Assembly (NCBI GenBank): GCA_964195945.1
Contig: CAXMRC010000090.1
Span: forward strand, 20,195 to 84,194
Origin: an uncultured Gemmatimonadales bacterium
GTDB lineage: Bacteria > Actinomycetota > Acidimicrobiia > Spongiisociales > UBA5794
DNA length: 64,000 bases
Direction: 5' to 3'
Part shown: positions 1,667-36,118 of the stretch, piece by piece
How the letters are laid out: the number at the start of each line of letters is the position of its first letter
How positions within the stretch are numbered: position 1 is the stretch's first letter
Translations under genes and position numbers: made by a program
The notes under the pieces: generated by a model
The model's input: only the letters and a program-made list of their open reading frames with translations
The model's database searches: none
What the model was told of the DNA's origin: nothing

Positions 1667-1715
1667 CGCGTCTGGCGTCCGTGAGCGCCTTATACCGTGG
1701 TGGTGGACGCCAGAC
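1667..1715. repeat. Solo copy of ~50-bp palindromic (REP-like) element
   Basis: cgcgtctggcgtccgtgagcgccttataccgtg is identical for 33 nt to 17830-17862; right arm is a variant (gtggtggacgccaga). Confidence 0.9.
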
Positions 1716-15652: not shown

Positions 15653-17710
15653 CTACTTGGCGGACCGCGCCTTGGGCGCTCCTCCCGCGGCCGGAGCACT
15701 AAACCCGAACCCCTTCTCGATGGCCCGTGGCATGCGATCAACGGCCAATGGGCGAGAGATGTAAAAGCCCTGCACCAGACTGCAGCCAAATCCGCGAACC
15801 ATGTCGAGCTGTTCTCGTGTCTCGACCCCTTCCGCAATCACCTCGAGGCGAAGGCTCTTGGCAAGAGACACCATCGACTCTGAAACCGTTGCGGTATCCG
15901 CGTCGGTGACAGCGTCACGCACAAACTCCCGATCGATCTTGATGGTGTCGATCGGGAAGCTCTTCAGGTAACTGAGTGAGGAGTAGCCGGTGCCAAAGTC
16001 GTCGATCGCGATAGAAACGCCGATAGCGCGCAACCGCTCCAACGTGCGCCGCGCCGTCTCCGTGTCTTCGACCAGAGTGCGCTCGGTCAACTCCAACTTG
16101 AGCCACGAAGCATCGAGTTTGGTGCGCTCCAGAGTTTGCTCGACGATCTCGGCAAGGTTGCCGCGTCGCAGCTGCCGCGGCGAGACGTTGATGGAGACTG
16201 AGAACTTTTCCAGCCCTGAGTCGTGCCACGTCTTTAGCTGCCTGCATGCGGTATTCATGGCCCACAAGCCCAGAGGAACGATGAGATCTGTCTGTTCAGC
16301 GAGCGTGACAAAGCGCTCGGTTGGAACCATGCCGAGCTCTGGATGCTCCCAGCGCAGCAAAGCCTCGACTCCGCCGACGACGCCGTTGTCGGTATCAATC
16401 CACGGCTGATATACGAGCCGAAGGCCATCCCCTGTAGCAACTGCCTTACGCAAGCCGTCTATGAGCCGGAGCCGCTCGGAAGCACTCTGCCGCAACTTCG
16501 GAGTGAAGTACTGATAGTTGTTCGATCCCGCGGCTTTGGCGGAGTACATGGCGATATCGGCGTCGCGCAGCAGAGCCTGTGACGTGTCGCCGTCTAGCGG
16601 ATACATGGCAATCCCGATCGATGTCGTGACGCGCAGTTCACGGGTGCCGACGAGATAGGGCTCGGCAACCGAATCGAGGATCTTGGTGGCAACCTGCCCG
16701 GCATCTTCGAGCCTGGTTCCACTTTCGAGAATCACCGTAAACTCGTCACCGCCAATGCGAGCCACGCTGTCGGTCTCCCTGACGGAAGCGACGATCCTCT
16801 TTGCTACTTGTTTGAGCAGGGCGTCGCCAGTGGCATGGCCGTAGTGATCATTGACCGCTTTGAAGTCGTCAAGGTCGAGAAACATAAGAGCAACCAGACC
16901 CTCATCTCGGCGGGCCCGCGCGATGGCGCTCTGCAGCCGGTCACTGAACAAGAAACGATTGATAAGACCGGTGAGCGGGTCGTAGCGCGCCAAGTAACTG
17001 AGCTTCTGTTGATCCTCGGCTCGGGCCGTTTCATGTTCGGCGGCTCGCTGCTCCCACTCTTTGCGTACGCCGCGGACCGCGGGACGGAACAGGAACACGG
17101 CCTCGAGGACAATCAGCAGCAGCATCACGGATAGAAGGATCAGCTGCGTTATCCGAAGACCGTTGACCCGCTCTTGTGCCTCGTCTTTGATAAGCGTCGC
17201 AACGCCATTCATCCCCTCGCGGAACTCCTCAGACGCCCGCGCCATCTCGCCGGCGGCGCCAACACGCAACTTGGCGCCAGACGATCCGTTCTCGATGAGC
17301 TCCTCTGCAAGGCGGGCCATCGCAATGAAATGCGGCTCGACTTCGGCTTCGATCCGGTCGTTGAAGGCTCGGCTGTGATCCGTTGGGAGATCGAGATCTA
17401 CGCTGCCGTAGCGGAGACCGTTGTGGTTGTTACGAATACGAATGAGCTCCACACTGAGACGATCGACCGCTTTGAGTTGCTCGTCCAGCGTGTCGGCGGC
17501 CTCGACCTCGAACCCGGCGTTCTCAATCGCTTCGCTGAGCAGGATCTGCTGCGTAACGACCTCGAGCACCCCTGCGTCCTTTTCCTGCCTGGTGAGTGCG
17601 GTCGAGGTGAGAATGGTCGAGACCACGGCGGCGATAGCGATGATCGCCAGACCGACGATGTACCGACCTACGGGCCGCTTTGGAACCTCGGCGGACGCGT
17701 TGTACCCCAC
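15653..17710 (-). CDS. Membrane sensor diguanylate cyclase/phosphodiesterase (GGDEF-EAL)
   Basis: 2 TM flanking a periplasmic-type helical sensor; DPLTGL, GGDEF, EALLRW, DDFGTGYSS. Confidence 0.95.
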   Translation of the reverse strand: MGYNASAEVPKRPVGRYIVGLAIIAIAAVVSTILTSTALTRQEKDAGVLEVVTQQILLSEAIENAGFEVEAADTLDEQLKAVDRLSVELIRIRNNHNGLRYGSVDLDLPTDHSRAFNDRIEAEVEPHFIAMARLAEELIENGSSGAKLRVGAAGEMARASEEFREGMNGVATLIKDEAQERVNGLRITQLILLSVMLLLIVLEAVFLFRPAVRGVRKEWEQRAAEHETARAEDQQKLSYLARYDPLTGLINRFLFSDRLQSAIARARRDEGLVALMFLDLDDFKAVNDHYGHATGDALLKQVAKRIVASVRETDSVARIGGDEFTVILESGTRLEDAGQVATKILDSVAEPYLVGTRELRVTTSIGIAMYPLDGDTSQALLRDADIAMYSAKAAGSNNYQYFTPKLRQSASERLRLIDGLRKAVATGDGLRLVYQPWIDTDNGVVGGVEALLRWEHPELGMVPTERFVTLAEQTDLIVPLGLWAMNTACRQLKTWHDSGLEKFSVSINVSPRQLRRGNLAEIVEQTLERTKLDASWLKLELTERTLVEDTETARRTLERLRAIGVSIAIDDFGTGYSSLSYLKSFPIDTIKIDREFVRDAVTDADTATVSESMVSLAKSLRLEVIAEGVETREQLDMVRGFGCSLVQGFYISRPLAVDRMPRAIEKGFGFSAPAAGGAPKARSAK

Positions 17711-17829: not shown

Positions 17830-17881
17830 CGCGTCTGGCGTCCGTGAGCGCCTTATACCGTGCTCACGGACGCCAGAGCGC
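17830..17881. repeat. Palindromic element, left copy flanking DUF559 gene
   Basis: tctggcgtccgtgagc-gccttataccgt-gctcacggacgccaga: perfect 16-bp stem. Confidence 0.95.
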
Positions 17882-17905
17882 AGGAGTATTCGATTCGGGG
17901 CCGAT

Positions 17906-18871
17906 TTGTGGCACGTTTGCAGAATCGACACAGCTAACGATCAAGTTCTGGCAATCGCTCGTAGCCAGCATGGAGTCTTCACGAGATCGCAGGCGGTCAC
18001 CTCGGGGGTTAAAGAAAGCACAATCGATACTCGGATGGTGAATGGCACCTACGAGCGTCTTCACCCCCATGTGTTCGGCATCACCGGCACGCCGGCATCG
18101 TGGCGTCGCTCGGTGGTCGCTGCCGTCCTGTCGGCGGGGCCCCTGTCGGCTGCATCACATCGGACTGCGGCCTATCCGTGGGATCTGACCTCGTCGCGCC
18201 CAACCGCGACCGAGGTCGTCTGTCGGCGGCATCTGCGGGTTCGTACCGCTGACTTCGTCGTCCGCGAGTCAAAGGACCTGGTCGAGGCGGACATAGCGAT
18301 CATCGACGGTGTCCCAGTTACCACAGCGGTACGAACAGTCGTTGATCTCGGGGCGTCAGCCCCGCTGGGAACCGTGGCGCGGTGCCTAGATGCTGGCCTG
18401 AGAACCAGGCTCTTCACCCTCGCCGACGTAGAGCTCTTCGTCGAGCGCGTCGCTAAGCCTGGACGTACCGGAGTTGGCATAATCCGCCCCCTTGTCGAAG
18501 AGCGATTGATGTGGCAGAGCATCACTGAGAGCACACTCGAAGACCTGTTCCGATCAGTCGTCGTCCGTGCCGCGCTGCCAATGCCAGAACCACAAGTCGA
18601 GCTCTATGACAGCAACGGTAGGTTCATAGGGAGGTTCGACTTCGCATTTCGTAGCCACAGAGTCTTGATCGAACTCGACAGCGAGCGATGGCACATGGAC
18701 CCAGAATCGTTTCGTCGAGATCGGAACAAACAAAACCGAGCCCACGCCGAAGGTTGGACCGTCTACCGGTTCACCTGGCATCAACTCAAACAGGAATCCG
18801 ACCAAGTAATCGATACTCTGGCGTCCGTGAGCGCCCTATACCGTGCTCACGGACGCCAAACGCGTTCTTAG
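17906..18871 (+). CDS. AbiEi-type wHTH + DUF559 (Vsr-like) endonuclease domain protein
   Basis: ARSQHGVFTR N-terminus, SHRTAA, GVPVTTAVRTVVDL, ESTLE, PEPQV, RFDFAF..RVLIELDSERWH...RD..KQN...GWTVYRFTW; start uncertain. Confidence 0.88.
   Translation: MWHVCRIDTANDQVLAIARSQHGVFTRSQAVTSGVKESTIDTRMVNGTYERLHPHVFGITGTPASWRRSVVAAVLSAGPLSAASHRTAAYPWDLTSSRPTATEVVCRRHLRVRTADFVVRESKDLVEADIAIIDGVPVTTAVRTVVDLGASAPLGTVARCLDAGLRTRLFTLADVELFVERVAKPGRTGVGIIRPLVEERLMWQSITESTLEDLFRSVVVRAALPMPEPQVELYDSNGRFIGRFDFAFRSHRVLIELDSERWHMDPESFRRDRNKQNRAHAEGWTVYRFTWHQLKQESDQVIDTLASVSALYRAHGRQTRS
18817..18864. repeat. Palindromic element, right copy overlapping 3' end of DUF559 gene
   Basis: tctggcgtccgtgagcgccctataccgtgctcacggacgcca: direct repeat of 17834-17875 with 1 mismatch. 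Confidence 0.95.
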
Positions 18872-18879
18872 TCCATCGG

Positions 18880-18963
18880 TGCCCGGAGCAGGACTCGAAC
18901 CTGCACGCCCCAAAGGGCAGCGGATTTTAAGTCCGCCGCGTCTACCGGTTTCGCCATCCGGGC
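18880..18963 (-). tRNA. tRNA-Leu(TAA)
   Basis: GCCCGGA acceptor, anticodon loop CTTAAAA, long variable arm, GGTTCGAGTCC; CCA not encoded. Confidence 0.96.
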
Positions 18964-34144: not shown

Positions 34145-34449
34145 TGTTCACGTCTCCTCGTAAATGGTAAATCGGGTTTGGGGCGCCGCACAGATGCTGC
34201 GAACGCGATAGAACGGCCCATATTATGCGCTATTGAGCGTCGCTAGGCAAAGAGAAGACCCGGGGCCACCTTCTACTACCGAGGAAATCCCGCGACAGTG
34301 AGAGGTCTTGCGACAGATTCAACGGCTCTTCAGGTGCTGACGGCGGGCGTAGTTCAGGAAGTTTCTGTTCACAGAGTGTCCTCAATGGACGATCCCATTC
34401 GTAGGTAGGGTGAGTGCGGGAACCGCCCGCAACAACGCAAGGAGCACCA

Positions 34450-34812
34450 ATGAGCCAGTACCTGTTGTCTATGCACACCGTAGAGGGCGAGACCCGCACC
34501 CAGCCGACTCCCGAGGAGATGCAGACGTTCATGGAGCGCATCAATGCCCTCGAAGCGGATATGAGGGCAACCGGTGCGTTTGTCTTCACGGGGGGACTCC
34601 ATGGTCCCGACACGGCGACGGTAGTCCGCAGGAGCGACGGCGAACTTGTCATGACTGACGGGCCGTTCGCTGAGTCAAAGGAACACATCGGTGGGTTCTA
34701 CGTCATCAACGCCGACGATCTCGATGCCGCGTTGGCCTGGGCCGGCAAGGTCGTAGACGCGGTCAACCATCCGATCGAAGTCCGCCCGTTCCACGATTCG
34801 CGCGGTGGCTGA
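34450..34812 (+). CDS. YciI/DGPF family protein
   Basis: [21 protein letters not shown]; AAGGAG RBS. Confidence 0.92.
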
Positions 34813-36118
34813 GGGCGTGACTCATGTCGCCGCCGATCGGGAAGCGACCACCGTTGGGCGCGTCTTCCGTGACGTGTACGGCCAAGCAGTGGCGACGCTG
34901 GTCCGCGTCTTCGGCGACATCACGCTTGCCGAAGACGCGGTCCAGGATGCATTCGTCGTGGCCAGTGACCGATGGCGCCACGATGGTATTCCGCCCAACC
35001 CGGCGGGGTGGATTATTACCACGGCACGAAACCGCGCTATTGACGATTTCCGCCGCTCGGCGCGGGGCCGGGAACTCCACGAACAGCTTCGGGCAGTCGC
35101 CAGCCCATCGCAGGACTCGGGGGCTGACGCCGGGAACGCTTCAGGCCCGTGGGGAGAGGACGGACCTGTGAGCGATGACCAACTCCGACTTATCTTCACC
35201 TGCTGTCACCCGGCGCTACGAACCGAGCACCAGGTTGCCTTGACCCTCCGCCTGCTGGGCGGGATGAGTGTCGATGAGGTGGCCCGCTCGTTCCTGGTCA
35301 GCGAGTCGGCGATGGCGAAACGACTCGTCAGGGCCAAATACAAAATCAAGGCCGCCAAAATCCCTTATCGCGTCCCAGCGGAAGCCGATCTACCCGAGCG
35401 GCTCCGCGCGGTCCTATCGGTGGTGTACCTCATCTACAACACCGGGGCCGACGGTCGGGAACGCGCCTCGTTGCGGATCGACGCGATTCGACTCGCCCGC
35501 GCACTGGTCAAGTTGATGCCCGACGAACCCGAGGCAGCCGGGCTGCTCGCACTGATGCTGCTCAGCGAGTCGCGGGTACTGGCACGCACAGCCGAGGGAG
35601 CTCTCGTGCTCCTGCGCGATCAGGACCGGGCCGAGTGGGATCACGCCATGATTGAGGAGGGACACAGCATCGTGCACGCTTGCATTCGTCGTGATCAACC
35701 AGGACCCTTCCAACTCCAGGCCGCGATCCAAGCCGTTCACTGCGATGCCGATTCGTTCGAAGTAACCGACTGGCACCAGATCGTCGCTCTCTACGACCAC
35801 CTCTTCACGATCATGCCTACGCCCGTGGTTGCGCTTAATCGAGCCATCGCCATTGGAGAGATCGAGGGCCCCGGAGCGGCGCTCACCGCGCTCGACGCAA
35901 TCGCGCCCGACCTCGACAACTATCACTTGATGCACGCGGCCCGCGGCTCAACATTGCGTCGACTCGGAAAACGAGACGCAGCGAAAGCCGCCTACGAACG
36001 CGCCGTCCACCTCGCCGCGACGGACACAGACCGGCGGTTTCTCGAGCAACAAGTCAAAGCGTTGACCGACTCATCTAGTAGCGGGGACGGCGACGCTGTA
36101 GCCGCTAGCCGGCGATGA
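34805..36118 (+). CDS. ECF sigma factor with C-terminal TPR extension (ECF42-type)
   Basis: [46 protein letters not shown]; paired with the DGPF gene. Confidence 0.92.

Follow-up and report, generated by a model that had tools for sequence, protein, structure and literature searches.

Results

A nuclease gene is bracketed by two copies of a palindromic element

The window studied here, a stretch of 64,000 nucleotides of contig CAXMRC010000090.1 (positions 20,195 to 84,194; assembly GCA_964195945.1), contains a gene for an AbiEi-like and Vsr-like (DUF559) nuclease that is flanked on both sides by a palindromic DNA element. The gene (17906..18871, plus strand) starts with TTG, encodes 321 amino acids and is the sole long open reading frame (ORF) between the two element copies. 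The left copy, a 46-nt palindromic sequence with an AT-rich centre, was found at 17833..17878 (core 17834-17877), and the start codon of the nuclease gene lies 28 nt past its end. The right copy, at 18816..18861, has the same orientation as the left copy and lies within the last 18 codons of the gene. The two copies share a direct repeat of 42 nt (17834-17875 and 18817-18858) with a single central mismatch (T/C), giving 41 of 42 letters alike, and no shuffled version of the window (0 of 100) gave two matches to the element. A sequence-only reading of this DNA had described a gene of about 320 codons between two near-identical, directly oriented palindromes, the right one overlapping the last codons, and these points were confirmed. 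Each copy is an inverted repeat in which 12 nt separate the arms; the 16-bp stem proposed in that reading is perfect in the left copy, while the right copy forms a perfect stem of only 14 bp. The element reaches 46 nt once the conserved GTC and GAC borders on the two sides of the core are counted.

The protein joins an AbiEi-like module to a Vsr-like nuclease domain

The nuclease gene product was compared with sequence and structure collections. An AbiEi-like DNA-binding module, consisting of a winged helix and the domain that follows it, occupies codons 9-178 (17930..18439, plus strand), and the Vsr/DUF559 nuclease domain occupies codons about 205-306 (18518..18823, plus strand). Residues 244-306 matched Pfam DUF559 (PF04480) with 30.5 bits (cut-off 20.6). 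The Pfam AbiEi_4 family matched residues 12-54 with 24.3 bits, below its cut-off of 25, and MTES_1575 was likewise below its cut-off; the PADLOC AbiEi models aligned to residues 9-178 with an E-value of 9e-27. An AlphaFold model was prepared from 33 homologs and had a mean predicted local distance difference test (pLDDT) score of 91.7. Foldseek matched the first ~200 residues of this model to the whole of the AbiEi antitoxin 6y8q_A (E 1.2e-6, template modelling (TM) score 0.67 on the target) and also to Rv2827c (1zel), and matched the C-terminal domain to the catalytic domain of I-Bth0305I (3r3p, TM 0.71 on the target), to Vsr and to a DUF559 structure. A sequence profile searched against the PDB returned 3hrl (2e-8), 3r3p (3.4e-7) and Vsr (0.007).

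Across 33 intact homologs, which share 25-71% identity, residues E212, D245, E256, H263 and D272 were invariant, and R243, D258 and R273 were conserved in at least 90%. From the motifs familiar in Vsr and DUF559 proteins, we take the five invariant residues to be the active site. The profile match over its curated cut-off, the fold and the conserved acidic and histidine residues together place the protein in the DUF559/Vsr-like superfamily. These comparisons, which agree with the winged helix-turn-helix (wHTH) plus Vsr-like nuclease assignment made from the sequence alone, show that the protein combines a DNA-binding module with a nuclease, and that the nuclease is probably active.

The genome from which the window derives (termed G000; an assembly of 3.43 Mb in 205 contigs, 95%-complete) was then searched for possible partners and for related genes. 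No AbiEii toxin gene adjoins the nuclease gene, and PF08843 had no match over its cut-off anywhere in the genome; the antitoxin label therefore does not fit, and the earlier statement that the toxin is missing was borne out. The same genome gave no match to Y1_Tnp (PF01797), and the protein itself matched only DUF559 and AbiEi families, which upholds the view that the enzyme is not of the HUH type. By tblastn, PF04480 and the family profile alike, G000 has one gene of this nuclease family. A separate 989-aa open frame holds an MTES_1575 nuclease domain over the cut-off (41.9 bits; contig C39:5759-6019).

The element is dispersed through the genome as solo copies

Copies of the element were sought genome-wide by requiring both 8-nt arm ends with 22-28 nt between them. 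In G000, this identified 22 copies, including the two that flank the gene and one more in the window, while the reversed pattern gave no matches in G000 or in any of the 41 genomes searched. The dispersed solo copies that the sequence-only reading could only guess at do exist. A de novo scan for palindromes of 36-56 nt with perfect 10-bp ends found 68, among which only the family of the element exceeds two members. Because most of the genomes are metagenome-assembled genomes (MAGs), in which repeats are under-assembled, all genome-wide copy counts given here are lower bounds; between 11 and 22 candidates were scored per genome.

The solo copies occupy tight intergenic gaps, typically 8-22 nt past the stop codon of a long ORF, and several lie between convergent genes. 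The solo copy in the window (1670..1715, core 1673-1712), in which the right inner arm is a variant, begins 9 nt past the stop codon of a 478-aa ORF. The flanks of the 22 copies are unrelated to one another. Neither target-site duplications nor palindromic P-nucleotide flanks were found around them; only the GTC and GAC borders are conserved, and positions farther out are near background. The features of an insertion sequence were not found either, as there is a single gene copy, no target duplication outside the element, and the loci are syntenic.

The layout recurs across the protein family

The association between the gene and its flanking palindromes was examined across homologs by aligning 280 nt around the start codon to 350 nt around the stop codon, with a score of at least 40 taken as a repeat and the reversed 3′ zone used as the control. 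Homologs were found in 33 of 41 relatives (a set that includes the unpublished genome G027), at 1-7 per genome, and flanking direct palindromes were present at 32 of 52 of their loci, compared with 0 of 52 in the control, where the highest score was 28. A set drawn from named Acidimicrobiia in GTDB (the best 80 loci, 76 of them with usable flanks, and with some overlap with the 52-locus set) had flanking repeats at 54 of 76 loci, or 50 of 66 with full flanks, and the control gave 0 of 76 with a top score of 30. Within 11 other families of Actinomycetota, 11 of 40 loci carried flanking repeats (control 0 of 40, highest score 30). The family profile itself matched 95 of 201 sampled genomes of the phylum (7 of the 201 are unpublished), with up to 11 or more copies in each.

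The flanking repeats are palindromes of 42-52 nt with many different sequences, and at about ten loci two tandem palindromes stand on each side. A separate fold scan found strong hairpins at 2.69 per kb in the flank zones versus 0.44 per kb elsewhere, a 6.1-fold higher density. The gene-palindrome layout is thus a property of the protein family, and the suggestion that gene and palindrome are specifically linked, in the manner of a REP-associated tyrosine transposase (RAYT) gene and its repetitive extragenic palindromic (REP) sequences, gained support from this family-wide comparison. The outermost letters (G)TTCT...AGAA(C) were observed to be common to otherwise unrelated palindrome classes (loci L016, L037, L046, L048, L054, L057, L069, L075, L112, L133 and others), which may point to a contact or cut site conserved among them.

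Palindrome sequence follows the protein lineage

The relationship between the protein and its palindrome was studied further at 75 loci. Protein identity and palindrome similarity were correlated (Spearman 0.465), and none of 500 permutations reached this value, although the permutation test overstates the case because kin are not independent. Pairs of paralogs from the same genome (n=13) had unlike palindromes, with similarities of 0.10-0.28 against a background of 0.14, while between proteins of different genomes that were at least 55% identical (n=38 pairs) palindrome similarity had a mean of 0.36 and a maximum of 0.89. As judged from these sequence comparisons, the palindrome tracks the lineage of the protein and not the host genome, and the co-variation with protein phylogeny that had been predicted is borne out.

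The genome-wide distribution of two palindrome classes was also determined. The class of the window, TGGCGTCC..GGACGCCA, has 22 copies in each of G000, G004 and G014 and 10 in G005, at most 3 copies in 8 further genomes, and none in 29 of 41. Its cognate gene is intact in G000 and G004 and a pseudogene in G005. The second class, GTTCTTGCGTAAC.., flanks a gene clade termed clade B, and its matches, counted on both strands, numbered at least 43 in G011, at least 42 in G001, at least 19 in G012 and at least 8 in G008, and it is these four genomes, and no others, that possess that gene clade; there were 4 matches in G006 and 1 in G002, and none in the remaining 35 genomes, G000 being one of them. 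Numerous dispersed copies (at least 4 sites) were found only with the cognate gene, with its dead copy, or in the incomplete genome G014. Counting the palindromes genome-wide and relating them to DUF559 genes, as had been proposed, thus showed for two classes that dispersed families accompany their cognate gene.

The dead copy in G006 (L007; G006:C56:24425-26911) is 62% identical and has three in-frame stops. Two more identical palindromes lie 0.8 and 1.3 kb upstream of it, its right palindrome is 26 nt from the contig end, and about 30 weaker palindrome matches are present genome-wide despite the dead gene.

Element copies turn over while the gene stays in place

The fate of individual copies was followed by taking 20 loci around elements of G004, an independent MAG, and placing their flanks in G000. 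Seven sites were occupied in both genomes and seven in G004 only, and the remainder could not be placed on both sides. At two G004 sites, G000 holds a decayed palindrome of another class. This decayed GTTCTTGC...GCAAG.AC class was observed just past stop codons on G000 contigs C135 (about 68,300) and C44 (about 15,950), where G004 has the TGGCGTCC class, and G000 is without a gene of the matching clade.

Nine positional orthologs, two of them the cassette copies, differed between G000 and G004 at 6-11 of the 24 inner bases, whereas the G000 copies of those nine differed from their own paralogs at a median of 3-5.5 positions, with one exception of 9.5. Mean inner distances were 4.6 within G000, 7.5 within G004 and 8.6 between the two genomes. 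Because the G000 copies are nearer to their own paralogs than to their G004 counterparts, copies have been replaced or converted within the genome after the species split.

The five closest genomes have extra genes at the spots of two G000 solo copies (window 1673-1712 and C4:67597). Another solo site in G000 (C135:143136-143175), with a DUF6183 gene, the palindrome and an FtsX-like gene in that order, matches two G004 palindromes (L185 and L170) on different contigs, which are joined to CtaA and GAPDH genes. Because one G000 site matches two G004 palindromes on different contigs, the palindromes mark a break in synteny. At a place where a solo palindrome stands in G004, G000 (C70:947-1721; L229:241-999, minus strand) has an ORF of 252 aa that matches no Pfam family; part of this ORF resembles D...E.Q by eye, a resemblance that is unverified. 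In the window, at about 34256-36105, a segment with ORFs replaces a G004 solo element.

The gene itself was found at fixed places. The order at the window locus is kept in G004, where a GGDEF-EAL gene, a palindrome, the nuclease gene (71% identity), a palindrome and tRNA-Leu follow one another. Judged by flanking genes, seven clade-B genes, each from a different genome of the genus, occupy one locus, and four more groups share loci of their own (L046/L038/L014, L005/L006, L010/L055 and L012/L013/L047). Recent copying is not apparent, as paralogs in the same genome share only 32-62% identity. As the genes stay at fixed syntenic loci, a cassette that spreads itself is not supported, and the proposal that the nuclease does so was not borne out, as orthologs share one syntenic locus in as many as seven of the genomes in the genus.

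Empty sites holding one palindrome had also been anticipated. Two empty sites could be aligned, and neither conforms: at the tRNA-Leu locus of G007, 345 nt lie between the two flanking genes and contain neither the nuclease gene nor a palindrome, and at the clade-B locus of G000 (C170) there are 35 nt from the stop codon to a conserved terminator stem and no intact palindrome. Excision is likewise unsupported, with no joint listed in the public contigs of four runs, although these contigs end within the palindromes and are uninformative either way. At the tRNA-Leu(taa) locus, six genomes of the genus (G004, G005, G006, G010, G013 and G014; loci L019, L020, L024, L026, L028 and L032) were observed to have the final 23-34 nt of the tRNA repeated once or twice more, 110-280 bp past its 3′ end, and these extra tails look like scars of integrations at the tRNA.

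Surroundings and assembly of the locus

The nuclease gene is intergenic, between a GGDEF-EAL gene (15653-17710, minus strand) and tRNA-Leu(taa) (18878-18963, minus strand), with 17 nt between the end of the right element copy and the tRNA 3′ end, and no intron, intein or split gene is involved. Further neighbours are an EF-G-like gene, Ppx/GppA and a luciferase-like oxidoreductase; the annotation of the neighbouring genes showed neither a transposase nor an integrase, as the sequence-only reading had stated. Around the gene neither a sigma-70 promoter consensus nor a T-tract terminator was found, and no T-tract follows the stems.

The stretch occurs in marine-sediment metagenomes from four runs of one study, and its closest named relatives are Acidimicrobiia MAGs. 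Logan unitigs break within the palindromes and no single public contig bridges the left junction, so that the evidence for this junction is the assembly from which the window was taken, together with the identical order in G004. In run X1, the summed contig depth over 17836-17902 was 793 at the left palindrome versus about 25 on the flanks, which corresponds to about 30 copies' worth in the sample, other organisms included.

Discussion

A probable pairing of a resident nuclease with its dispersed palindromes

One interpretation of these data, and the one that we consider to be probably correct, is that the locus represents a REP/RAYT-like pairing, analogous to a REPtron, in which a resident Vsr-like nuclease is matched with its own dispersed palindromes and the enzyme is not of the HUH type. 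The layout, its specificity, the co-variation of palindrome and protein, the dispersal and turnover of copies and the residence of the gene are the observations that this interpretation joins together. The protein, probably acting as a dimer, would recognise the conserved outer arms of the element (GTCTGGCGTCC in inverted repeat) and would cut or nick the DNA, be it a duplex, a cruciform or a single-strand hairpin, at or near the palindrome. Repair of the break from other copies could then keep the palindrome family uniform, and from time to time a copy might land at a new site. Through its two flanking copies, the gene would stay genetically linked to the family of its targets, and the left copy may double as the operator of the gene.

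Several points weigh against this pairing. That the protein binds or cuts the palindrome is something that we infer, and a hydrolytic nuclease has no means of its own to paste DNA, which means that a further step would be required to seed new sites. No insertion event was caught, and the public runs kept as contigs show no joint. About 20 copies is a low number for a REP-like family. Flanking repeats were not detectable at 20 of the 52 loci in relatives or at 29 of the 40 loci sampled phylum-wide. In-frame stops were present in 11 of the 52 homologs, and selection on the gene is therefore not strong everywhere. G014 has 22 copies of the window's class with no cognate gene found, in a genome that is only 67% complete. 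The folded form of the palindrome also fared poorly. Pairing at the inner 12 positions was 0.667 versus 0.724 for partner shuffles in G000, and 0.655 versus 0.645 in G004. A comparison of left and right copies at 39 loci gave 92 pair-breaking and 18 wobble single changes, 6 double breaks and 7 compensatory doubles. Seven compensatory changes among 13 double changes, set against 110 single changes, amount to only a small excess.

Because compensatory changes are few, a folded structure is not supported, and the hairpin suggested as the working form of the element finds no backing here. In G004, the five positions beside the outer arms vary freely; the outer arms are constant, and so is a GC-rich central block around a TATA-like centre. 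An arrangement of two constant outer half-sites, a loose spacer and a constant symmetric centre looks like the site of a dimeric protein and is also reminiscent of I-Bth0305I. A dimer on a duplex palindrome accounts for the element no less well than a folded hairpin does.

Alternative explanations

It could be that the palindrome-gene-palindrome unit moves as a whole and that the solo copies are its targets or excision scars, either because a homing-type nuclease is copied into solo palindromes or because a circular form carrying a single palindrome inserts into one of the solo copies. Whole-element direct repeats on both sides are the outcome expected when such a circle integrates at a solo site, homology links the nuclease domain to the homing endonuclease I-Bth0305I, and pseudogenes (11 of 52) together with several paralogs per genome are as for selfish genes. 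Even so, orthologs remain at one syntenic locus in up to 7 genomes, with four other common loci, and paralogs of one genome, at 32-62% identity, have different palindromes. Both alignable empty sites are without an intact palindrome, neither a joint nor a circle was seen in the contigs, and in G000 one gene coexists with 20 solo sites that are still uninvaded. We regard a mobile cassette as unlikely. The palindromes could instead be regulatory, serving as bidirectional terminators or RNA-stabilising stem-loops and as the operator of an autoregulated gene, with the copies kept alike by gene conversion and the nuclease at work elsewhere, in repair or defence. AbiEi proteins bind inverted repeats and autoregulate through them, and the positions agree, with solo copies 8-22 nt past stop codons and often between convergent genes, the left copy 28 nt ahead of the start codon and the right copy at the 3′ end of the gene. 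A regulatory role, however, leaves unexplained why paralogs from a single genome are each flanked, on either side, by a palindrome of their own, why the dispersed class is numerous only with a cognate gene, its remnant or an incomplete assembly, and why this is the sole repeated palindrome family in the genome; in addition, the stems lack T-tracts and the catalytic residues are conserved. Such a role, too, appears improbable.

The usual annotation, that of an orphan antitoxin from an AbiE-type (type IV) toxin-antitoxin or abortive infection system, draws on the match of the N-terminal 170 residues to AbiEi models and to an AbiEi structure. It is very hard to sustain, with no AbiEii gene adjacent or over the cut-off genome-wide, a C-terminal half that is a nuclease with conserved active-site residues, and a palindrome association that has no place in the toxin-antitoxin model. 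Finally, a common repeat might lie beside the gene by chance, or the MAG might have been mis-joined at repeats. The breaking of Logan unitigs in the palindromes and the unbridged left junction would allow this, yet the same order is seen in the independent MAG G004, dozens of MAGs show the layout, as do genomes assembled into one or two contigs, and 22 copies in 3.43 Mb correspond, by our own estimate, to a chance of about 1 in 1000 per 150-nt zone. We give almost no credence to an artefact. Each of these explanations conflicts with at least one of the points tested.

Relationship to known systems

The REPtron concept, a RAYT enzyme together with its REP palindromes, is set out in PMC8266576. 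The present system resembles REP/RAYT in that an enzyme gene is bracketed by cognate palindromes, in that the same palindromes are dispersed extragenically and often after genes, and in that enzyme and palindrome co-evolve, with a resident gene and one gene per palindrome family. RAYT systems are reported to show the pattern seen here, in which the gene is resident and sometimes lost and the repeats are the dynamic part. RAYT enzymes cleave and join REPs in a folded single-strand form, and covariation that would point to a folded form is weak for the present element. The differences are that the enzyme here is a Vsr-like hydrolase of the PD-(D/E)xK type with an AbiEi wHTH module and not an HUH/Y1 enzyme, that there are about 5-25 copies and not hundreds, that the flanking copies are in direct orientation, and that the host phylum is Actinomycetota. 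The conserved GTAG-like 5′ motif of REP sequences is not seen in this element.

The homodimeric, multidomain enzyme I-Bth0305I has a ~60-bp footprint with a 14-bp pseudopalindrome at its centre (PMC3239194), and it belongs to the EDxHD family of Vsr-like homing endonucleases (PMC2677866). Its nuclease domain is homologous to the one studied here, and its footprint geometry is as expected for a 46-bp palindrome; the geometry of the present element would be compatible with a homodimer that cuts at the centre of a pseudopalindrome. The present gene, however, is outside any intron, intein or split gene and is syntenic and not invasive, its presumed target is a dispersed repeat that is intact on both sides of the gene, and its N-terminal module is AbiEi-like. 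With the AbiEi antitoxins (6y8q; Rv2827c, 1zel) the protein shares the fold and sequence of its first ~180-200 residues, and it differs from them in having no AbiEii partner, a fused nuclease and a tie to a dispersed palindrome family. ISPpu9 and other insertion sequences that target REPs are similar in placing a gene-bearing unit in or beside REP-like palindromes; they are DDE-type transposons with several identical copies and their own ends (PMC8450116), whereas here there is one resident gene with neither terminal inverted repeats nor target duplication.

A search of the literature, confined to sources other than subscription journals and supplements, gave no account in which DUF559/AbiEi genes are flanked by their cognate palindromes. 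The logic matches that of REP/RAYT, and the enzyme is unrelated. To our knowledge, REP-like repeats have been tied to one enzyme type, the HUH-type RAYTs, mostly in Proteobacteria. Finding the same genomic logic with an unrelated hydrolytic nuclease in another phylum would make a convergent 'enzyme plus its palindromes' arrangement directly testable. In Actinomycetota, a second means of maintaining and spreading extragenic palindromes may have evolved independently, in which a resident, sequence-specific Vsr-like nuclease breaks the DNA at its own family of ~46-bp palindromes, and host repair copies and homogenises the palindromes and occasionally seeds new ones; this wider proposal is put forward tentatively.

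The pairing gives a concrete and checkable role to a very common and unexplained actinobacterial family that is routinely annotated as an antitoxin, and it explains a class of repeats that breaks metagenome assemblies and sits at synteny breakpoints. As each nuclease comes with a predicted recognition site of ~46 bp, simple in vitro tests can be designed, and long-site nucleases may possibly be obtained. If the reading is true, thousands of 'AbiEi antitoxin / DUF559' genes would be the enzymes of such systems, and each would be a natural long-site nuclease whose target could be read from its own flanks.

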